From Clostridiaceae bacterium (GTDB taxonomy: Bacteria > Bacillota > Clostridia > Saccharofermentanales > DTU023): a stretch of DNA of 64,000 nucleotides. Positions 1 through 9,456 of the stretch are shown here, piece after piece. Below the pieces are notes generated by a model. It had not been told where the DNA came from and did not search any database. It saw nothing but the letters and a program-made list of their open reading frames with translations. Positions within the stretch are counted from its first letter, which is position 1, and every line of letters starts with the position of its first letter. Made by a program: the position numbers and the translations under genes. The stretch is taken from positions 3,953 through 67,952 of the forward strand of contig JAAZKK010000023.1 of NCBI GenBank assembly GCA_012799825.1. Reading direction: 5' to 3'.

Positions 1-1
1 A

Positions 2-358
2 TCGGCCAACAGGGAAGCGACACGACAGGAAATAGAGGCATTATCTCTTGTGATGGCAGACTTCGGCGTCAATTTCTCCGATGTTGCCGACAGTTCTCCC
101 AAGCAAGATCGAACACTTGCGGCTTGTGGCAAAGCGATACGTTATGCCGCCGAAAACAAAAACCTGTTGGATGAACTGTTGAGGACGAAGAAGCTGCCGA
201 TGGCAAAACTCGTTCGCGGTTCCGGTGTTGAGCGCAAAACTCTGGAACGCCATAGAAAATACATTCTTGCCATGCTTCTTATTCAGACGAACGGATATGA
301 GATTATTCGTGGCCATTTGAGGCGTGTGTTAAAACAGGAAGGGGGGATGTCAGCATGA
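2..358 (+). CDS. sigI: SigI-like RNA polymerase sigma factor, C-terminal part (5' end lies upstream of the window)
   Basis: The frame is open from nt 2, with no stop before the listed ATG at 50. The C-terminal KTLERHRKYILAMLLI segment resembles SigI-type region 4. The stop overlaps (ATGA) the start of an RsgI-type anti-sigma gene, which is the canonical sigI-rsgI arrangement. Confidence 0.55.
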   Translation, partial: SANREATRQEIEALSLVMADFGVNFSDVADSSPKQDRTLAACGKAIRYAAENKNLLDELLRTKKLPMAKLVRGSGVERKTLERHRKYILAMLLIQTNGYEIIRGHLRRVLKQEGGMSA

Positions 359-1404
359 AGTACATCGTCATGGAATGCTACCTAAGTTATGCTGTCGTTT
401 TAGATGAAGACGGTCGCTTTCTTAAGGTCGCAAATCGACAGTACGAAGTAGGACAGACGGTGACGGACGTCATCGAGATGCGTGTTCCCAAGTCAATCCC
501 TCAGAATAAGAAAATGAAGCGCTGGCTTGTTCCCGTTGCCGCGGTGGCCGCGTGCCTGATCATTGCACTGATATTTGTGCTTCAACTAGATCACCGTCCC
601 TTCGCTTCGATTTATATGAGCATTAACCCGGAGATCCGCATTGATGTCAATCGACACGATGTGGTTGTCGGATTGGAGGGTGTCAACGCAGATGGAGAGC
701 GCTTAATTGAATCATATAACTATAAGAAGAAGGATGTTGATACGGTTATAGGCGATCTGCTTGATCGAGCCATCGATATGGGTTATCTCCTTGAAGGGGG
801 ACAGATTGCATTCGTCTTTGATGCGGAAAGCGGCGAATGGGTCGTTTCCCGAAGTGATTCGCTTGAGAAATTCTTAAACGAACATCTCGGCAAAAAGATT
901 TCGGTAACCATCGTCCTGACCGATAAAAAGACCGATACAAATAAGGTTATTATTCCGGTCGTCCCGGGAGAAAGCGATCATAACGATTCAGAACATGGAG
1001 AAACTCAGCCGAGCAGCGCTCCTACTGTAAGCTCCGAAACGGATAACGGTGAAGACGATCCCGACGACATGGGTAATGATCCTGACAATGATGACGATCG
1101 CGACGACAATGACAATGATGATATTGATGATGACAATGACATCGATGATGATGACGACGGCAAGGATTCTGATGATGACATCGGTGATAACGATCCCGAT
1201 GACGATGATAACGACAATGGCAGCGATCCTGACGATGACGGCGATGATGACGACATCGACGATCCCGACGACATCGATGATGACGATCCAGATGACAATG
1301 ACGACGATTCCGATGACGATGATAACGACGATGACAGCGATCCTGACGACGATGACGATGATGACGACTTCGACGATCCCGACGACATCGATGATGACGA
1401 TTGA
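355..1404 (+). CDS. rsgI: RsgI-like anti-sigma-I factor with poly-aspartate C-terminal tail
   Basis: It has an RsgI_N-like cytoplasmic start (MKYIVMECYLSYAVVLDEDGRFLKVANRQYEVGQTV) and a single TM (WLVPVAAVAACLIIALIFVL). A juxtamembrane domain with Asn-Pro (SINPEI, nt 625-630) follows, then a ~120-aa D/N/P/I/G tail. The start overlaps the upstream sigma gene (ATGA). Confidence 0.75.
   Translation: MKYIVMECYLSYAVVLDEDGRFLKVANRQYEVGQTVTDVIEMRVPKSIPQNKKMKRWLVPVAAVAACLIIALIFVLQLDHRPFASIYMSINPEIRIDVNRHDVVVGLEGVNADGERLIESYNYKKKDVDTVIGDLLDRAIDMGYLLEGGQIAFVFDAESGEWVVSRSDSLEKFLNEHLGKKISVTIVLTDKKTDTNKVIIPVVPGESDHNDSEHGETQPSSAPTVSSETDNGEDDPDDMGNDPDNDDDRDDNDNDDIDDDNDIDDDDDGKDSDDDIGDNDPDDDDNDNGSDPDDDGDDDDIDDPDDIDDDDPDDNDDDSDDDDNDDDSDPDDDDDDDDFDDPDDIDDDD
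1030..1401. repeat. GAY-codon low-complexity tract with ~114-bp tandem duplication (encodes acidic tail of RsgI-like protein)
   Basis: The tract is nearly continuous gat/gac codons. The string cgacgatcccgacgacatcgatgatgacgat occurs at 1257 and again at 1371. The string ccgatgacgatgataacgac..cagcgatcctgac occurs at ~1195 and ~1309, so the period is 114 bp. Confidence 0.85.
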
Positions 1405-1674
1405 TATTTGAGTTTCATTAATTTCTACGGTTTTGATTTCATATTCTGTTTGCGCTTTTTTGCGTCTTTTCGCAAGTTATGTAAACCGAGATAACGGACT
1501 ATATGTGCGGCAAAGCACACGGAATGACGTGAGAAAACATACGGTAAACAGATGTTTAAAAATCCTTTTTCAGATGACCCCGGTTTTCAGAAAACTCGTC
1601 CGTAATCTATAAACGAAGGGTGAACAGAAGTTCACATCCGAACAACAAATGCTACAAAAGGAGAATCGTGCATT

Positions 1675-2619
1675 ATGAAAAAATCAATATTTAGAAGATC
1701 AACTTTCACAGTGGCTCTCGCCCTAGTTCTCAGCCTCTGCATGCTCGTTGGTTGTTCCAAGACACCGGCCAAGACAGATGGCAGTGAAAAAGTTGCCGGC
1801 GGCGGTGTACTGGTACTGAGCGTCAACCCGAAGATCGCCGTTCAATATGATGAAAATGGCAATGTAACCGCTGTGGATGCGCGTAACGAAGATGCAAAAG
1901 CGATCATTGAGAACTGTGGAGAGTTGGTGGGAAAAGAAACCCGCGAAGCAGTAGGGAAGCTAGTTGAAGCTATCGGTTCAGCAGGCTATTTTGTCGAAGA
2001 AATTGAAGGCGAAAATCGCAAGATCACGATTGAACTTGAAGAAGGTTCTAAGCTGCCGAGCGAAGCCTTTATAAAAGACATCGTCTCCGATATCCGAGAC
2101 TATATCAAAAGCAATGAATGGAATACTCTACTGGACGTTAAAGATGGAAGCGATTACGGTCTGACGGATGACGATGACATCAACGAAACAGACGACGACG
2201 ATGACATTGACGAAACAGACGACGATGACATTGACGAAACGGATGATGACGACATCGACGATGACGTTGACGAAACGGATGATGACGACATCGACGATGA
2301 CGATGATGACGACAAGGATTCCGATGACGACGATGACGATGACGACAAAGACGACGTCAAGGGTTCCAATGACGATGACGACGATGATGACGACGACAAA
2401 GACGACGTCAAGGGTTCCAATGACGATGATGACGATGACGACAAAGACGACAACAAGGATTCCGATGACGACGATGACGATGACGATAATGATGACGACA
2501 AGGATTCCGATGATGACGACGATGACGATGACGATAATGATGACGACAAGGATTCCGATGACGACGATGACGACGATCAGGATTCCGATGATGATGACGA
2601 CGAAGAAGATGACGATTGA
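1675..2619 (+). CDS. Lipoprotein with RsgI-juxtamembrane-like domain and poly-aspartate tail
   Basis: It has a signal peptide with lipobox LVGC (Cys27) and an aaggag RBS 11 nt upstream. The segment VLVLSVNPKIAVQYDENGNVTAVDARNEDAKAII..AIGSAGYF parallels IYMSINPEIRIDVNRHDVVVGLEGVNADGERLI..AIDMGYL of the neighbouring RsgI. The last ~150 aa are mostly Asp. Confidence 0.7.
   Translation: MKKSIFRRSTFTVALALVLSLCMLVGCSKTPAKTDGSEKVAGGGVLVLSVNPKIAVQYDENGNVTAVDARNEDAKAIIENCGELVGKETREAVGKLVEAIGSAGYFVEEIEGENRKITIELEEGSKLPSEAFIKDIVSDIRDYIKSNEWNTLLDVKDGSDYGLTDDDDINETDDDDDIDETDDDDIDETDDDDIDDDVDETDDDDIDDDDDDDKDSDDDDDDDDKDDVKGSNDDDDDDDDDKDDVKGSNDDDDDDDKDDNKDSDDDDDDDDNDDDKDSDDDDDDDDDNDDDKDSDDDDDDDQDSDDDDDEEDDD
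2160..2616. repeat. GAY-codon low-complexity tract with several short tandem repeats (encodes acidic tail of lipoprotein)
   Basis: An exact 38-nt copy, gacgacaaagacgacgtcaagggttccaatgacgatga, occurs at 2341 and 2392 (period 51 nt). The units IDETDDDD (x3) and DDNDDDKDSDDDD (x2) are also repeated. Confidence 0.85.
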
Positions 2620-2722
2620 GGAAGGATAACCTTTTAAACATTGTCATTGATTAATTTGCAAGATGATTGGACGATTTCAACTAGACTATGAAAGTTGTTC
2701 AATCAAGTTCCCCTCATGCTGA

Positions 2723-2757
2723 CTCACACGGTTTCTACCGTGTGAGCAGCTTTTTTT
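2723..2757 (+). terminator. Rho-independent terminator downstream of the lipoprotein gene
   Basis: The stem ctcacacgg / ccgtgtgag has a 6-nt loop and is followed by cagc and ttttttt. Confidence 0.7.
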
Positions 2758-2857
2758 GATACATTCCGCATCACATAGTCTCATGTGGTTGTCGCACTTG
2801 AAGGTGAGTTTTGCGGTATCAAGTTGTTCAAATGAAAAAAAAAGACTATGATGGACA

Positions 2858-2882
2858 AGAAATGCATAAGCATTTCTTTTTT
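2858..2882 (+). terminator. Second hairpin plus T-run about 100 nt after the first terminator
   Basis: The stem agaaatgc / gcatttct has loop ataa and runs into tttttt. It is preceded by an A-run, so it could act in both directions. Confidence 0.5.
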
Positions 2883-3088
2883 CTATGAAAGGGCGAGTAA
2901 CATCGGTCGGGCTGCAAATAAGATTTAATCTCATTCTTCCTGCCCGGAAGGGGCGAGGATATTCGTCGAGGATGGATGTTTATATCGAATCGATTGTTAA
3001 ATAATAGATGCCCTTACCGCATGAAGAGCAGAGATAGTGCGGTTCAGATCATTATTAACGTCATCGTGTAACAGAGGGGGGCTAGGCG

Positions 3089-4729
3089 ATGTCGATCATC
3101 AAGAAGCTTTTCTATAGAGTATTTCAGTTTTTACTGGTGGGTGTTGGCATGTCTTTTATGCCGCAGCCGAGTCCCAAATTGCTTACGGGAGTCGGTTGTA
3201 TCAAGGAGCTTCCTGCGTTTATCAAGGGGCGCGGTATTGATAAAGTCCTGATTGTAACCGATAAAGTGCTGTCTCAGATAGGACTTTTAGACAGCCTTTT
3301 TGAAGCATGTGATAAAGATAGACTATCGTATGTGCTTTACGATGAGGCGATCGTCAATCCCTCCATCGAATGCATTGAAAAAGCTTATGAGACGTATCGC
3401 GAACAAGGCTGTCAGGCTTTTATCGCTTTTGGCGGCGGCTCGGCGATGGATTGCGCGAAAGCGGCGGCTGCCCGTGTCGCAAGACCCAAGAAAAGTATTT
3501 CTCAGCTCGGCGGCACACTCAAAGTGCGGAGTTTCAAGGTGCCGCTGCTTTTTGCCGTTCCGACGACGGCCGGAACAGGTTCGGAAGCCACGCTGGCGGC
3601 AGTCGTGACCGACTACAGTACGCAACATAAGTATGCCATCCAAGATCCTTCGCTCTTGCCTAAATTTGCCGTGCTCGATCCCGAACTCACAGTCGGTCTC
3701 CCGCCGCATACGACAGCGACAACGGGACTTGACGCATTAACACACGCTATTGAGGCGTATACCAATAAATTCGCTCCAAGGTATACGCGACGTCTGTCAG
3801 AGAAAGCAACAAAACTTATTTTTGAGAATTTACCGAAAGTGTATCGAGACGGGAAAGATCATGAAGCACGTGCTAACATGCAGCTTGCCGCACTTTATGC
3901 GGGCAGGGCATTCAGTCGCGCCTGTGTAGGTTATGTGCATGCTATCGCCCATACTCTAGGCGGCCTTTACGGTACACCTCATGGCCTTGCTAATGCCGTC
4001 ATACTCCCTTACATCATGGAAGATTTCGGTTCTGCAGTGCATAAAAAGTTGGCACGCCTTGCCGATGTCGTCGGCATCGAAGGCAGCAATGACGAAGAGA
4101 AAGCAAAGGCCTTTATCGCAGCCATCAAGAAGATGGAACGCGATATGAACATCCCTGAAAAAATAGACGTCATCCAAGATGAGGACATTCCTAAAATGGT
4201 TCGATTTGCCATGAAAGAGGGCAACCCGCTTTATCCTGTTCCTGTTATCTGGGGGAAGGAGGAGTTTGTAAGAACCATAGAGCGCATTCGTTCGAAAGAT
4301 AGTAAGAGAGCTTATTTCATCAGCAAAAAATGTATAGGCTGCACCCTTTGCGCCAGAAACTGCCCCGTGTTTGCCATCGAGGGGAAACCGAAGGAAAGAC
4401 ACGTCATCAATCCGAAACGTTGCATTGAATGCGGTGTATGCGCCAATATGTGCAACGTGGGAGCCATACTTGATGCGGACGGGAGGGCCGCGAAGAAAAA
4501 ACCAAAGCAGGAATGGAAAAAACCTGTGATCGACGAAGAGCTTTGCAGCGCTTGTTCCATCTGCGTCCAAGCCTGCGGGAAGAATTGTATTCGTATTTCA
4601 TCTCCGAAGTATAAAGGTGACATTAATGTTCATGCTTATCTTGAAAATGAAAAACAGTGTGTCGGATGTGGCGTATGTGCCTTGCGTTGTCCGTTACACG
4701 CCATCACGATGAAGGGCGGTGAAGAATAA
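3089..4729 (+). CDS. Iron-containing alcohol dehydrogenase fused to a C-terminal 4x[4Fe-4S] polyferredoxin domain
   Basis: Residues ~25-400 match the Fe-ADH family (GGGSAMDCAK, HAIAHTLGG..HG). Residues ~410-546 carry four Cys motifs: CIGCTLCARNCP, CIECGVCANMC, CSACSICVQAC and CVGCGVCALRCP. A purine-rich RBS (gagggggg) lies upstream. Confidence 0.85.
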   Translation: MSIIKKLFYRVFQFLLVGVGMSFMPQPSPKLLTGVGCIKELPAFIKGRGIDKVLIVTDKVLSQIGLLDSLFEACDKDRLSYVLYDEAIVNPSIECIEKAYETYREQGCQAFIAFGGGSAMDCAKAAAARVARPKKSISQLGGTLKVRSFKVPLLFAVPTTAGTGSEATLAAVVTDYSTQHKYAIQDPSLLPKFAVLDPELTVGLPPHTTATTGLDALTHAIEAYTNKFAPRYTRRLSEKATKLIFENLPKVYRDGKDHEARANMQLAALYAGRAFSRACVGYVHAIAHTLGGLYGTPHGLANAVILPYIMEDFGSAVHKKLARLADVVGIEGSNDEEKAKAFIAAIKKMERDMNIPEKIDVIQDEDIPKMVRFAMKEGNPLYPVPVIWGKEEFVRTIERIRSKDSKRAYFISKKCIGCTLCARNCPVFAIEGKPKERHVINPKRCIECGVCANMCNVGAILDADGRAAKKKPKQEWKKPVIDEELCSACSICVQACGKNCIRISSPKYKGDINVHAYLENEKQCVGCGVCALRCPLHAITMKGGEE

Positions 4730-4731
4730 GC

Positions 4732-6645
4732 ATGGGACATCCGAAATTGAGATTGCCGAAGTATGCCATCATTGATTTAACGTCGGGAACAGCAGCCGAT
4801 TACCCCATCTCAGAGGAATTGTATAAAAAATATATCGGCGGCAAATCTCTGGGTTCAAGGCTTTTGTTTGATTTAGCGCCGCCACGTGTTGACCCGCTTT
4901 CGGCGGACAATGTGCTCATCGTCAACACAAGTCCTATGACCGGCACCGGAGCTGCCTCGACGAGTCGTTTCAATCTGTCATTTAAGAATGTCCTGACGGG
5001 CGGTATTGCGACGAGCAACTGCGGCGGCACATTCGGCATCATGCTCAAGGCGGCAGGCTATGACGGCATCATCTTAAAAGGGAAGGCGGAGCGTCCATCC
5101 TACATCGAAATTGTAGACGGTGCGATCAGTTTGAAGAATGCTGAACATCTGTGGGGTATGAATACAGAGGAAGTCCAGGAGCAGTTTGAACCGCATTGGG
5201 GCAAACTGGTAATCGGACCCGCTGGCGAGAACCTTGTGCGATATGCCAGTGCTGTTTCAGGCGAGCGTGTTGCCGGCCGCTGCGGCGCAGGCGCGGTAAT
5301 GGGTTCTAAGAAGATTAAGGCGATCATCGCTTTTGGCACGAAAAAGCCTTACATCTACGACAAGGAAAAATTTGATCAATATAACAAAAAATATATTCGA
5401 CTCCTAAGAGATCATCCTGTTACGGGGGAGGCGCTGCCAAAATACGGTTCCGCCTATTTTCTGAAAAATACGAATGCTTCGCATTCGCTGCCGACGAAGA
5501 ATTTTAAGATGGGGAAGTATGAGGACGCAGAGATGATAACAGGCGAAGCTTTAGCGGATACGTCTCTTACAAGAAATAGTGGCTGCGTCAGCTGCCCCAT
5601 TCGCTGCGAGCGCAGAGTGATGGTATACGGTAAAGAGGTTAAAGGTCCCGAATATGAAACGGTCGGCCTTCTCGGAGCCAATATTCTGAACAATGATCTT
5701 GATTTGATCAGCGAGTTAAATTACCTAGCCGACATATACGGTATGGACTCCATTTCGCTTGGCGGTACGCTCGCTTTTGCGATGGAATTGAAAGAAAAGA
5801 ATCTAGCCGATTTCGGTTTAAACTTCGGTTCGAAAGAGGGCATTATAGAAACGATTGACGCTATTGCTCACGGTGTCGGCACAGGGAAAGAGCTTGGACA
5901 GGGCACGAAGGTTTTAGCTGAAAAATATGGCGGAGATGACTTTGCCATTCACGCCAAAGGCTTGGAGTTGGCGTCTTATGAGCCGCGAACATCGGTCGGT
6001 ATGGGATTGGGTTATGCCACGTCGAATAGGGGCGGCTGCCATCTCAACGGCGGGTATCTTGCTCTCGTGGAAACCGTCATGCTTTCTGTTGATGCGCAGA
6101 CGCCCAAAGGAAAGGCGGAGCTCACCGTTCTTTTCCAAAACATGATCGAGGCGATTTCTGTTGCCGGGTACTGTCTTTTCACCGCCATAGCGGTCCTTCC
6201 AGGCCCTTTGCTTAAGTTGGGTCCAGCGCATCCTGTAAGTCGATTTGTCAACAAAATCCTGATTGGAGTCCGTTTTATTCTCGGGTCGCTGTGGAAGTTC
6301 ATGCCGAAATTGCTCCCTTTCAACATGCTCTATCTTTTGCCGCATTCAGAATCGTTGAAACTTGTCACAGGCATGCCGATAACTTCAGGCAAGTTCTTAC
6401 AAATTGGAGAGAGATGCTTCAATATCGAACGCCTTTTTAATCTCAGAGAGGGCTTAACAGCGGAAGACGACGATCTTTCTGCGAGGCTGACAAAGACACC
6501 TCAAGATCTGGATCGGCCCGACACGATCGTTCCGCTGGATAAGATGTTGCCGAAGTATTATAAGGTGCGTGGTTGGGATGAAAACGGCGTTCCTAAGAAG
6601 AAAAAACTAAGACAGCTTGGTATAGATATCGACATAAATATATGA
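4732..6645 (+). CDS. aor: Aldehyde:ferredoxin oxidoreductase (tungstopterin AOR family)
   Basis: The 637-aa protein has an AOR-family N-terminus (YAIIDLTSG..YIGGKSLGSRLL) and 4Fe-4S ligand region CVSCPIRC. It also has GLGYATSNRGGCHLNG and the C-terminal KYYKVRGWDENGVP. It starts 2 nt after the ADH stop. Confidence 0.85.
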   Translation: MGHPKLRLPKYAIIDLTSGTAADYPISEELYKKYIGGKSLGSRLLFDLAPPRVDPLSADNVLIVNTSPMTGTGAASTSRFNLSFKNVLTGGIATSNCGGTFGIMLKAAGYDGIILKGKAERPSYIEIVDGAISLKNAEHLWGMNTEEVQEQFEPHWGKLVIGPAGENLVRYASAVSGERVAGRCGAGAVMGSKKIKAIIAFGTKKPYIYDKEKFDQYNKKYIRLLRDHPVTGEALPKYGSAYFLKNTNASHSLPTKNFKMGKYEDAEMITGEALADTSLTRNSGCVSCPIRCERRVMVYGKEVKGPEYETVGLLGANILNNDLDLISELNYLADIYGMDSISLGGTLAFAMELKEKNLADFGLNFGSKEGIIETIDAIAHGVGTGKELGQGTKVLAEKYGGDDFAIHAKGLELASYEPRTSVGMGLGYATSNRGGCHLNGGYLALVETVMLSVDAQTPKGKAELTVLFQNMIEAISVAGYCLFTAIAVLPGPLLKLGPAHPVSRFVNKILIGVRFILGSLWKFMPKLLPFNMLYLLPHSESLKLVTGMPITSGKFLQIGERCFNIERLFNLREGLTAEDDDLSARLTKTPQDLDRPDTIVPLDKMLPKYYKVRGWDENGVPKKKKLRQLGIDIDINI

Positions 6646-6964: not shown

Positions 6965-7338
6965 TTCTGTCATACAAGTCTTCGGTACAAGATTGCTCCG
7001 ATGATTTCTTTAATACATCGATATTATTCCTTTGATTAAGGTTGAATGCCTGATTAAACTGGACGACCCGCGATTCTCACTGTCCAAGTTACTTTGGCAT
7101 TCAGCTTTCCTTCGTTTAAGACGAGCTGCTCAAGGAAAGCCGCTCAGGATATGTGTAATCTGTGTTATGATATTTAGCGGTATTCTAGTTCGAATATCAG
7201 TCGTTTTTTTGCACAAACTGCTCTGAGCAGAGTATTGGCAAAGTTGATTTCTTGCACGCGTTACGTTGCAAGTAAAAAAGTTCAAATAGAAGCGTAAAAA
7301 AGATTAGCTTCAAAAAAATGTTACAAGGAGTTCACATC

Positions 7339-9456
7339 ATGAAAAAAGAGTCGCTAGATCGCCTTTTTAAACCCGATTCGGTAGCCATCATCGGTGCTTC
7401 ATCTAAGCCCGGCAAAATTGGTTATGCCGTTGTCGAAGCGTTAAACGAGGGAAAGTATGAAGGAAAAATCTTTCCCGTAAACCTCAGAGAAAAGGAGATA
7501 CTCGGTCATAAAGCCTATCCGGCTATCGGCGATATCCCGGAGAAGGTTGACCTCGCGGTTATTTCGATTCCCGCAAAATTTGTCCCCGATACAGTTGAAG
7601 AATGCGGTAAAGCAGGGGTCGGCGGGGTCAGTATCATCACATCCGGCTTCAGCGAGGTCGGAAACCATGAAGCGGAGCAGCGCATACTGGAAATTGTCAA
7701 ACGTTACGGAATGCGCATGATGGGTCCGAACATCATCGGCACGCTGAGCAATTCGCATAAGCTCAACGCCTCCTTTGCGCCGATGTTGCCGCTTCCCGGA
7801 AAGAGTGCTTTGATTTCACAGTCGGGCGCTCTTTTGATTGCGTTGGATGCGGGGACGTATCTTCGCGGCGTCGGCTTTGACAAATTGTTTTCTCTTGGGA
7901 ACATGGCTGATGTGGACTTTGCCGATATCGTGGAATGGTTGGACAAAGATGATTTTACCAACAGCATCGCACTTTATATCGAGGGGATGAGCAAGGGCCG
8001 TCGTTTCATGGAAGTCTGCCAAAAATGCAGCAAACCGGTCATCGCTTTGAAGTCCGGTGTTTCCTCGCACGGTGCCGCCGCCGCGGCCTCCCATACCGGT
8101 TCGCTGGCGGGTGCGGCGAAAGTATATGGCGCGGCTTTCCGTCAGGCCGGTGTTGTAGAAGCCGAAAGCTTGAATCACCTCTTTGACCTCACACAGGCCT
8201 TTCAACTTCAGCCGCCCATGCAAGGCGACAACCTTCTTATTGTTACAAATGGCGGAGGCGTCGGCGTTCTGGCGACGGATTCCGCTGAACGTTACGGCAT
8301 TCCGCTGAAATTCTTGCCGGATGATCTCCAAGTCGAAATGAAGAAATATATGCCCGATTTCGGATCTGCTAAAAATCCCGTCGACATCACCGGACAAGCA
8401 GGTCTTGAAGGTTATCAGAAGAGCATTGAATTTGGGCTCAAACAAGAGTGGGTCGATGGTTTGGCCGTGCTTTATTGCGAAACGGCCGTCACCAATCCGA
8501 TGGAGATCGCCGAAGGCATCTATAACGCTGTGAAAGCGGCCGGTCCTGTGATGGACTATAAACCCGTCGCCGTCGCTTTTGTTGGCGGCGAAAGAAGCGC
8601 TGAGGCGGTGCGCTGGCTTATCGACAACGGCATTCCCGCTTATGACGATCCGAATCGCGCTGTCAGCGCGTTGAGCGCTTTGCGTCATTACGCGCGGATG
8701 CAGGAAGAAAAAGTCGGCATGACACAGATGGTGCCGGCGGTCGATGGCGCTTATGAGAAAGCGCTCGCCATCATCAAAGGCGCGCGTGAAAGCGGTCGCG
8801 ACGCGCTCACTGAAGTTGAAGCGAAAGATGTCTTTGCCGCGTATGGCCTGAATGTTACCAAAACGACACTCGCGAAAACAGAAGATGAAGCGGTGGCCAT
8901 GGCTGAAGATATCGGCTATCCGATCGTGATGAAGATCGTATCTCCTGACATTCTCCATAAATCGGATGCCGGCGGCGTGGTCGTCAACATCAAGAACGAG
9001 CAGATGGTGCGTGACGCCTATAAGAGGATTCTCGACAATGCGATTGCTTATGATCCCGATGCCGACATTTATGGCGTCGCCGTACAGGAGATGGCGCCCT
9101 CGGGAACAGAAGTTATCTTAGGTTCTACAACGGATCCCGCGTTCGGTCCCGTGCTCATGTTCGGTCTTGGCGGCATTTTCGTTGAAGTGTTGAAAGACGT
9201 GACGTTTGCCGTATGCCCCGTGTCTGAAGCACAGGGGATGAAGATGCAATCACAAATCCGCGGTGCGGGTATCTTGAAAGGAGCTCGCGGTGAAGCGCCG
9301 CGCGATCAAGAAGCCATGGCGGAACTCATCGCGCGTTATTCAACGATGATGTACGATCTTCGAGATGAGATCAAGGAATCAGATGCGAACCCCGTTATGC
9401 TGTATGAGCAGGGGAAAGGCCTTAAAGTGGTCGATGCGCGCATCATTCTAACATAA
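7339..9456 (+). CDS. ADP-forming acetyl-CoA synthetase / acetate--CoA ligase (fused alpha-beta, NDP-forming acyl-CoA synthetase family)
   Basis: It has a CoA-binding N-terminus (LFKPDSVAIIGASSKPGKIGY) and a succinyl-CoA-synthetase-like ligase domain with SHTGSLAG. A C-terminal ATP-grasp domain follows (YPIVMKIVSPDILHKSDAGGV). I prefer the start at 7339 (aaggag RBS at 7325-7330) over the listed 7318. Confidence 0.85.
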   Translation: MKKESLDRLFKPDSVAIIGASSKPGKIGYAVVEALNEGKYEGKIFPVNLREKEILGHKAYPAIGDIPEKVDLAVISIPAKFVPDTVEECGKAGVGGVSIITSGFSEVGNHEAEQRILEIVKRYGMRMMGPNIIGTLSNSHKLNASFAPMLPLPGKSALISQSGALLIALDAGTYLRGVGFDKLFSLGNMADVDFADIVEWLDKDDFTNSIALYIEGMSKGRRFMEVCQKCSKPVIALKSGVSSHGAAAAASHTGSLAGAAKVYGAAFRQAGVVEAESLNHLFDLTQAFQLQPPMQGDNLLIVTNGGGVGVLATDSAERYGIPLKFLPDDLQVEMKKYMPDFGSAKNPVDITGQAGLEGYQKSIEFGLKQEWVDGLAVLYCETAVTNPMEIAEGIYNAVKAAGPVMDYKPVAVAFVGGERSAEAVRWLIDNGIPAYDDPNRAVSALSALRHYARMQEEKVGMTQMVPAVDGAYEKALAIIKGARESGRDALTEVEAKDVFAAYGLNVTKTTLAKTEDEAVAMAEDIGYPIVMKIVSPDILHKSDAGGVVVNIKNEQMVRDAYKRILDNAIAYDPDADIYGVAVQEMAPSGTEVILGSTTDPAFGPVLMFGLGGIFVEVLKDVTFAVCPVSEAQGMKMQSQIRGAGILKGARGEAPRDQEAMAELIARYSTMMYDLRDEIKESDANPVMLYEQGKGLKVVDARIILT

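Follow-up and report, generated by a model that had tools for sequence, protein, structure and literature searches.

A polyaspartate tail common to an anti-sigma factor and a neighbouring lipoprotein in a reduced sigma-I module of a Clostridiaceae bacterium

What could an anti-sigma factor of the RsgI family sense when its outer part ends not in a folded module but in more than a hundred residues, two thirds of them aspartate? The question is raised by the sigI-rsgI pair at the very beginning of a 64,000-nucleotide stretch of Clostridiaceae bacterium DNA (contig JAAZKK010000023.1), called the window below. Analysis of the locus and of its relatives gave three results that are new relative to the literature searched. 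The polyanionic tail is common to the sensor and to its apparent target lipoprotein, encoded next to it. The locus belongs to a six-gene module that joins sigma-I signalling to a CotH/polyphosphate-polymerase/DUF4956 cassette, previously described only as accessory to the pel operons of Gram-positive bacteria (PMC7112168; bioRxiv 10.1101/2024.04.20.589940). Finally, [ST]DY repeats have repeatedly been replaced by acidic, mostly polyaspartate tails after loss of CotH.

The sigI-rsgI pair and the adjacent lipoprotein

The window begins inside sigI: the last 118 codons and the stop occupy positions 2-358 of the forward strand, and the gene start lies upstream. These 118 residues matched the C-terminal half of ten NCBIfam SigI models (E 1e-23 to 1e-11). 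The full protein, of 242 residues, was taken from a metagenome contig identical to the window over 7404 bases (L004), and all SigI models aligned with it end to end (E 3e-53 to 9e-27). It has sigma-70 region 2 and a SigI-type C-terminal domain replacing sigma-4, and the cognate rsgI lies directly downstream, the sigI stop and the rsgI ATG overlapping (ATGA). Scores remained under the NCBIfam SigI equivalog cut-offs, the nearest being TIGR02895 (175.7 bits versus 185) and the others further below. By profile comparison, the window sigma factor is a member of the SigI family, but the equivalog of no curated SigI subgroup.

The rsgI gene (355-1404, +) encodes 349 residues, with PF12791 and PF23750 above their gathering thresholds. 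A cytoplasmic anti-sigma domain, RsgI_N, covers residues 4-37 (364-465, +; PF12791, E 5e-7, 29.9 bits against a cut-off of 25). A single transmembrane helix, found by hydropathy scan at residues 58-76 (526-582, +) just behind the sequence NKKMKR, was modelled as a helix over residues 58-80 by AlphaFold2 (AF2). Next comes the autoproteolytic SEAL, or RsgI_M, domain at residues 84-193 (604-933, +; PF23750, E 1e-20, 74.8 bits against 25.3). Its predicted autocleavage site, Asn91-Pro92 (625-630, +) within SINPEI (residues 89-94), is invariant in 18 homologues and sits in a turn between modelled strands 84-89 and 93-98; the Asn-Pro site of RsgI proteins has been defined experimentally (PMC10328401, PMC10556640). 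In the AF2 model, made for residues 1-204, the SEAL region has a predicted local distance difference test score (pLDDT) of 86-94. Its top Foldseek match was the SEAL domain of B. subtilis RsgI (8T9N, E 5e-7, TM score 0.80), further top matches being periplasmic domains of C. thermocellum RsgI proteins (8HER, 8HEP and 8HDJ). The initial annotation had already proposed a SigI/RsgI pair, with one membrane helix and a juxtamembrane domain holding an Asn-Pro pair, and profile search, hydropathy and the homologues agree with it on each of these points.

The protein ends in the polyaspartate tail, residues 227-349 (1033-1401, +): 123 residues, 65% of them Asp, without Tyr and with a net charge of -80. 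Over residues 230-349 the count is 80 Asp out of 120 (66.7%), with 11 Asn, 8 Pro, 6 Gly, 6 Ile, 4 Ser and five singletons, for a net charge of -79, so that the earlier estimate by eye, two thirds Asp from about residue 225, was accurate. No Pfam family matched the tail, and its composition, 65% Asp with few hydrophobic residues, appears incompatible with a fold. The layout of RsgI is of the B. subtilis type, an anti-sigma domain, a transmembrane helix, a SEAL domain and an acidic tail without a folded sensor module; as proposed, the tail stands at the position of the disordered region of B. subtilis RsgI.

The tract, which had been described from a single contig, is real. It is not an assembly artefact, because the identical RsgI protein is present in at least four independent assemblies: the exact 349-residue product was found on 13 contigs, the four shown coming from four samples (one JGI, three ENA). 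The frame is open, GAT and GAC codons are mixed in the tail (42 and 38), and the repeats of the tail DNA are imperfect (a 114-bp unit present twice, 88%). Across the six frames of the window there are just two D/E-rich tracts, the rsgI tail and the tail of the next gene. Four open reading frames (ORFs) over these tracts, 1005-1418 (-), 1049-1411 (+), 2154-2549 (-) and 2168-2629 (+), were rejected as genes, being by-products of the GAY repeats; off-frame and opposite-strand products over both tracts are poly-Ser, Met/Thr-rich or His/Arg-rich.

That next gene (1675-2619, +) encodes a SEAL lipoprotein of 314 residues (PF23750, E 1.4e-11, 45.5 bits). Its signal peptide (1675-1755, +) was read from the sequence: the N terminus is MKKSIFRRSTFTVALALVLSLCMLVG-C27, with a hydrophobic segment at residues 9-27 and the lipobox LVGC, and Cys27 is invariant in 16 homologues. 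The SEAL domain, residues 43-156 (1801-2142, +; PF23750), was modelled by AF2 with pLDDT 76-94. It contains Asn51-Pro52 (1825-1830, +) in SVNPKI, both residues invariant in the same number of homologues, and its best Foldseek match was again 8T9N, then the C. thermocellum RsgI2 periplasmic domain (PD)/8HDJ. The tail, residues 162-314 (2158-2616, +), comprises 153 residues, 70% of them Asp, with a net charge of -104; AF2 modelled it with pLDDT 41-53 and no secondary structure. At 23% identity, the two SEAL domains of the window are old paralogues, yet their tails are alike. The tail is therefore not peculiar to the sensor; the initial annotation had overlooked this second gene.

Assemblies of the same organism differ, in frame, in the length of the lipoprotein, which has 279 residues in one of them (L007, 5639-6478) against 314. 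This 35-residue difference lies in the tail, and RsgI is identical in all.

In front of the lipoprotein gene lies a sigma-I-type promoter, ACCCCGGTTTT-N13-CGTAATCT (1577-1608, +), which fits the Bacillales sigma-I consensus ACCCCC--AA-N15-CGAA (PMC4711584). The promoter pattern matches nowhere else in the 64 kb, where chance would give 0.01 matches. On the identical contig, ACCCCGCTTTTT..CGTATTCT is found upstream of sigI. Among the related loci described below, 67 of 76 have a CCCC-N19-CGWA motif some 53 nt ahead of the sigI start and 68 of 72 have it ahead of the lipoprotein gene, and 140 of the 141 strict matches in 1.18 Mb of these loci are at one of the two positions. Conservation of the motif before both transcription units makes it most likely that sigma-I transcribes the lipoprotein gene as well as its own operon.

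The six-gene module and its tails in relatives

A search with the RsgI head (residues 1-225) returned 546 homologues. Among the best 120, acidic Asp-rich tails are the rule, mostly punctuated by SDY, GQSDY or DDSDY, and the window RsgI is an extreme, Tyr-free case. An acidic tail is thus no exception in this RsgI subfamily. An alignment of RsgI heads was then scanned against one genome per species, which gave 80 loci in Clostridia and Erysipelotrichia; about 79 distinct ones were analysed, gene presence being determined by tblastn. The RsgI head was used for this survey instead of the lipoprotein head, with which a word-index search gave 24 clusters that did not include the window protein.

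In 49 of the approximately 79 loci, sigI, rsgI and the SEAL lipoprotein gene occur together with genes for VTC, DUF4956 and CotH, and across these 49 the last three proteins are 54-81% identical to those of the sister species. The lipoprotein gene adjoins rsgI in most loci analysed. Clustering of all neighbouring ORFs of the surveyed loci found no further conserved neighbour gene. The sister species (L001) is a Saccharofermentanales metagenome-assembled genome with an RsgI 84% identical to that of the window and the same flanking genes. It is CotH-positive: downstream of the lipoprotein gene it encodes a VTC-like polyphosphate polymerase (PF09359) without transmembrane helices, a DUF4956 protein (PF16316) with three to four, and CotH (PF08757) with a single N-terminal one. 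Packing is operon-like: with the VTC start inferred from the alignment to L001, the lipoprotein gene and VTC overlap by about 31 nt, and gaps of 18 nt and 5 nt separate VTC from DUF4956 and DUF4956 from CotH. For the CotH of the cassette, matches were obtained to PF08757 (E 3e-59) and to B. cereus CotH (5JD9). It keeps two Asp positions that correspond, each shifted by 4, to D228 and D251, which are essential in B. subtilis CotH.

Of this cassette the window retains a stub. Positions 2650-2763 (+) match residues 26-63 of the sister VTC protein (tblastn, 45% identity, E 1e-5), with no plus-strand ORF of at least 40 residues listed over them, and these 38 residues were all that tblastn of the whole window recovered of VTC, DUF4956 and CotH. 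The stub runs into a deletion scar (2758-2822), where 65 bp stand against 2,847 bp in the sister species, which hold the rest of VTC, DUF4956 and CotH; on both sides the sequences align by blastn (1550-2757 with L001 7118-8306, and 2823-3399 with L001 11154-11728). By this alignment, the window lineage lost three genes through a 2.85-kb deletion that left the VTC stub behind, and the window locus is a reduced, three-gene derivative of the conserved sigma-I module.

Weak remnants of the VTC 5' end were also seen behind the lipoprotein gene in two other lineages without CotH, L030 (11840-11959, E 0.006) and L041 (12030-12137, E 0.33), which suggests independent in-situ deletions. Other arrangements exist. 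In L079 (11041-13761) and L087 (11217-13999), CotH directly follows the lipoprotein gene, without VTC and DUF4956. In some CotH-less loci (L064, L065, L066 and L081), sigI-rsgI is kept and the lipoprotein gene, too, is lost or truncated; the RsgI tail of L066 has 420 residues, rich in Glu, Pro and Asp, with PEPPFEE repeats.

In about 50 species both tails, that of RsgI and that of the lipoprotein, carry [ST]-D-Y repeats. The tail consensus of the CotH-positive loci is [DG]-[DV]-[TS]-D-Y-[GD]-[DP], with a Tyr-Tyr spacing of mostly 5 or 10 residues, and 93% of the tail Tyr in the lipoprotein and 85% in RsgI lie within [ST]-x-Y. Motif counts in these loci range from 9 to 32 in lipoprotein tails and from 1 to 16 in RsgI tails; in the window they are 1 and 0, respectively.

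Tail composition was compared between loci with and without CotH, counting those with at least 1.8 kb of downstream DNA, so that absence means absence from the 1.8-9.6 kb downstream. In the lipoprotein tail (51 loci with CotH, 11 without), the median fraction of Tyr was 0.138 with CotH and 0.023 without (p 5e-7), that of Ser plus Thr 0.16 and 0.01 (p 6e-7), and that of Asp 0.26 and 0.67 (p 8e-7). In the RsgI tail (50 and 15 loci), Tyr fell from 0.083 to 0.002 (p 6e-6), and Asp plus Glu rose from 0.36 to 0.64 (p 4e-6). Gly also drops in both tails, together with Ser/Thr, and Asn and Pro drop in the lipoprotein tail too. In the CotH-less lineages [ST]DY is essentially gone, Asp makes up 33-79% of the lipoprotein tails (median 67%), and most RsgI tails are Asp/Glu-rich. 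These loci fall into at least six separate clades of a neighbour-joining tree of SigI and the RsgI head. Tyr contents of the two tails are correlated (rho 0.66, 62 loci). The motif tracks CotH, because the two loci that have CotH without VTC and DUF4956 keep [ST]DY-rich lipoprotein tails.

The charge of the lipoprotein tail is -0.26 per residue in CotH-positive loci and -0.64 in the polyaspartate form; with one phosphate on each motif, the former would by calculation become -0.52. Between the sister species and the window, the one reliably aligned stretch of tail changes from SDYDDSDYGE to SDHNDSEHGE, the alignment by residue being unreliable past the first 25 or so tail residues. The heads have a dN/dS versus the sister species of 0.063 (RsgI) and 0.099 (lipoprotein), so purifying selection continued on both genes once the cassette was gone. 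Polyaspartate is the derived state that accompanies this loss, and because acidic tails arose repeatedly in genes under purifying selection, their negative charge looks selected.

Polyaspartate tails often keep a non-acidic residue (I, V, L, W, H or Y) every 4-8 positions. Periodic tails of this kind are found in L038 (11006 onward) and in the lipoproteins of L056, L060 and L063, with units such as DDDWDDVYDD, DDDKDDLDDLH and DDDDIDETDDDD.

Non-coding elements and flanking genes

With about 91 strict matches to the promoter spread over about 70 loci, some loci must have two tandem sigma-I promoters. The lipoprotein leader (1609-1674 in the window, and the same region from L001 to L087) has a conserved TCTATnnnTGTAAGG stretch 3' of the -10 element, and in the window a small hairpin, GTGAAC/GTTCAC (1620-1635), without an Rfam match. 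A consensus scan placed a terminator-like hairpin with a T-run after the lipoprotein gene (2723-2756, +; a 10-bp stem with six GC pairs). No riboswitch or leader RNA was found by an Rfam scan of positions 1-3200 at E up to 1; sub-threshold matches to snoRNA and miRNA families were dismissed, most of them lying on the GAY repeats. A sigma-70 promoter scan gave matches no more numerous than in shuffled sequence.

Downstream of the scar, the window encodes, at 3089-4729, an iron alcohol dehydrogenase with fused 4Fe-4S ferredoxin domains, then an aldehyde:ferredoxin oxidoreductase at 4732-6645 and an ADP-forming acetyl-CoA synthetase-like protein at 7318-9456. These genes, labelled by Pfam on the identical contig, are unrelated to the module, and their adjacency is not conserved. 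Upstream of sigI, L004 has genes for a GntR regulator, an ABC ATPase and a 263-residue protein without a Pfam match (3060-5088); only 11 of 79 loci have a homologue of the ABC ATPase nearby.

Tail charge and the sigma-I switch

The closest known system is SigI/RsgI of B. subtilis (Brunet 2022, PMC9732909; Brogan 2023, PMC10556640). Gene pair, domain order and Asn-Pro pair are the same, the window promoter is of the Bacillales sigma-I type (ACCCC...CGWA) and 8T9N is the best structural match, although the window SEAL domain is only about 22% identical to it in sequence. The window differs in the 65% Asp of its tail, the B. subtilis-type tails being described in PMC9732909 as mixed charged and polar, in a second protein with SEAL domain and tail that is an apparent sigma-I target, and in the CotH kinase cassette of the ancestral module. 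With RsgI1-9/SigI1-8 of C. thermocellum (Chen 2023, PMC10328401) it shares a clostridial host, a periplasmic autoproteolytic Asn-Pro domain, the pairing with a sigma-I factor and autoregulation from a promoter whose -10 element is CGWA. However, the window RsgI lacks a folded sensor module, whether carbohydrate-binding or other, the -35 region is of the ACCCC type and not of the A-tract type, and the structural match is weaker (TM score about 0.45).

The same three cassette families are known from pel-linked loci (Whitfield 2020, PMC7112168; bioRxiv 10.1101/2024.04.20.589940), where CotH is likewise secreted or anchored and the VTC-like enzyme cytoplasmic. In the relatives of the window the cassette is joined to sigI, rsgI and the lipoprotein gene and not to Pel genes, and in the window it is deleted; a literature search turned up no paper linking RsgI to it. 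In B. subtilis, CotH is encoded beside the low-complexity repeat proteins CotB and CotG, and multiply phosphorylates such Ser-rich, adjacently encoded proteins on Ser/Thr (Freitas 2020, PMC7821199). That CotH works in the mother cell, for the spore coat, on basic Ser-Lys-Arg substrates and without a sigma/anti-sigma pair, whereas the repeats of the present module are acidic [ST]DY repeats, and their phosphorylation is proposed by analogy. Self-cleaving, non-covalent tethers from which a long, extended chain, negatively charged or bulky, can be shed by force are also found in MUC1-type SEA mucins and microbial MAIN-domain proteins (PMC10556640; bioRxiv 10.64898/2026.05.12.724683). There is no homology with these, the charge here would come from Asp or putative phosphate instead of glycans, and shedding of the lipoprotein is a proposal.

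We favour, at roughly even confidence, a switch of the B. subtilis type, with SEAL domain and disordered tail, in which the polyanionic tail would be a genetically fixed stand-in for the charge that relatives probably gain by phosphorylation. RsgI would hold sigma-I at the membrane, as in B. subtilis and C. thermocellum. Its SEAL domain would cleave itself at Asn91|Pro92, the halves staying associated until a pulling force on the tail within the cell wall parts them; a site-2 protease would then cut the remaining stub and free sigma-I. Self-cleavage at Asn-Pro, force through the C-terminal region and release by site-2 protease all have precedents in characterised RsgI proteins (PMC9732909, PMC10556640, PMC10328401), the disordered tail of B. 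subtilis RsgI is required for signalling (PMC9732909), and force-releasable autoproteolytic tethers are known elsewhere (bioRxiv 10.64898/2026.05.12.724683). Freed sigma-I would transcribe its own operon and the lipoprotein gene, and the lipoprotein would bring further polyanion of this kind to the membrane surface, its ectodomain sitting on a lipid-anchored, self-cleaved tether from which it could be shed.

In relatives, the membrane-anchored CotH would multiply phosphorylate the [ST]DY repeats outside the membrane, DDTDYGPNNDGVTDYDD being a candidate peptide substrate of its ectodomain. This step is proposed because B. subtilis CotH is a Ser/Thr kinase for repeat proteins encoded next to it, because the cassette CotH keeps the Asp positions aligned with D228 and D251, and because in C. 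thermocellum sigma-I6 drives a secreted CotH-dockerin protein. Polyaspartate would then be a hard-coded replacement for phosphorylation charge, needing neither phosphate nor kinase. The circuit as a whole would monitor and adjust the negative charge of the envelope, hence its cation-binding capacity, and envelope charge or divalent-cation status is our preferred guess for the physiological signal.

Several points weigh against this charge-substitution scheme. CotH absence is local only, so that these genomes may have a copy elsewhere, although in-situ deletion is seen in the window and in L030. The Mann-Whitney p-values given above ignore phylogeny, and the independent evidence amounts to about six separate losses. 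Exceptions exist in both directions, L022 and L079 having CotH and Tyr-free RsgI tails, and L028 lacking CotH with 21% Tyr in its RsgI tail; the coupling to CotH is looser for the RsgI tail than for the lipoprotein tail. In B. subtilis, scrambled and foreign disordered tails still signal (PMC9732909), and by analogy the composition of the tail may matter less than argued here. A kinase acting outside needs a phosphoryl donor outside; polyphosphate exported through VTC/DUF4956 is only a guess, and two loci have CotH without VTC and DUF4956. Lastly, none of the window ORFs of at least 150 residues matched in a crude motif scan (HExxH plus LDG) for a site-2 protease of the M50 type.

The strongest competitor, although we hold it to be rather unlikely, overlaps with the scheme above and needs no CotH history: the RsgI tail would be a dedicated sensor that collapses or extends with free Ca2+ or Mg2+, with wall charge or porosity, or with cationic antimicrobial peptides, ligand sensing being primary. 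A net charge of -80 over 123 residues with no folded module behind it would suit such a sensor, the charge is kept in independent lineages, and the requirement for the B. subtilis tail in signalling is in line with it. What it does not account for is a tail of the same type on an output lipoprotein without a signalling domain, or acidic tails being general across the RsgI subfamily.

Alternatively, and with still less probability, the tail might be a generic disordered spacer in which only disorder and length matter, Asp having filled it by drift, through replication slippage of GAY-rich repeats, after the [ST]DY motif lost its partner, and the charge having no function. The tolerance of B. 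subtilis for scrambled and heterologous tails speaks for this possibility, as do the imperfect tandem repeats of the tail DNA and the 35-residue length difference between assemblies. Against it, at least six independent lineages converge on acidic, mostly Asp-rich tails and not on varied compositions. The shared loss of Ser/Thr and Gly in both paralogous tails, and of Asn and Pro in that of the lipoprotein, also fits it poorly. The tails remain long and in frame, their charge density is near the value predicted for phosphorylated ancestors, and the mixture of GAT and GAC argues against simple runaway slippage.

Binding of Ca2+ by polyaspartate proteins is established, and it is conceivable, but quite improbable in our view, that both types of tail are calcium or mineral scaffolds that bind Ca2+ at high capacity. 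The module would then build or manage surface calcium-polyphosphate, with export of polyphosphate by VTC/DUF4956, and polyaspartate would be a calsequestrin- or aspein-like binder needing neither polyphosphate nor kinase. GPNNDG[VI]TDY, the most frequent decapeptide, precedes DD and bears a loose resemblance to the Ca loop of an EF-hand or dockerin (x-x-N-x-D-G-x-x-D-x-x-D), and a VTC-like polymerase and a membrane protein do lie in the operon. The likeness is imperfect, with Gly at position 1, and Tyr follows CotH and not VTC/DUF4956. The decapeptide comes from lipoprotein tails of CotH-positive loci, for instance P0132, P0139 and L027 (downstream of 11309). As to a mis-assembled low-complexity repeat or a pseudogene decaying after the deletion, the GAY-rich DNA and the scar right behind the locus might recall one, but with an identical product on 13 contigs, open frames, a dN/dS of 0.06-0.10 and an intact promoter, the idea is barely credible.

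The charge-substitution scheme can be extended, more tentatively, to the family. Many Clostridia and Erysipelotrichia would then possess sigma-I-controlled extracytoplasmic phosphorylation, and polyaspartate would be a phosphomimetic that evolved repeatedly after loss of the kinase. The membrane-anchored CotH would hyperphosphorylate [ST]DY repeats on RsgI and on a lipoprotein that can be shed. The VTC-like enzyme would make polyphosphate and DUF4956 pass it outward, perhaps fuelling CotH, while RsgI would read the charge state of the envelope and so close a feedback loop. We regard this extension as possible but doubtful.

For RsgI proteins of the B. subtilis type, the question is by what means a disordered tail generates the force for opening the SEAL domain, and whether tail composition plays a part. 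The present locus and its relatives form a natural series in which the switch is constant and the tails are either [ST]DY repeats beside a surface kinase or, after at least six independent losses of the kinase, acidic and for the most part polyaspartate, and charge density therefore becomes an explicit, testable variable. The series also offers a candidate substrate and a candidate regulator for the CotH/polyphosphate-polymerase/DUF4956 cassette, which is found beside Pel biofilm operons of streptococci and clostridia as well. If the phosphorylation step is true, regulated protein phosphorylation outside the bacterial membrane would be widespread among common anaerobes of the gut and of digesters.

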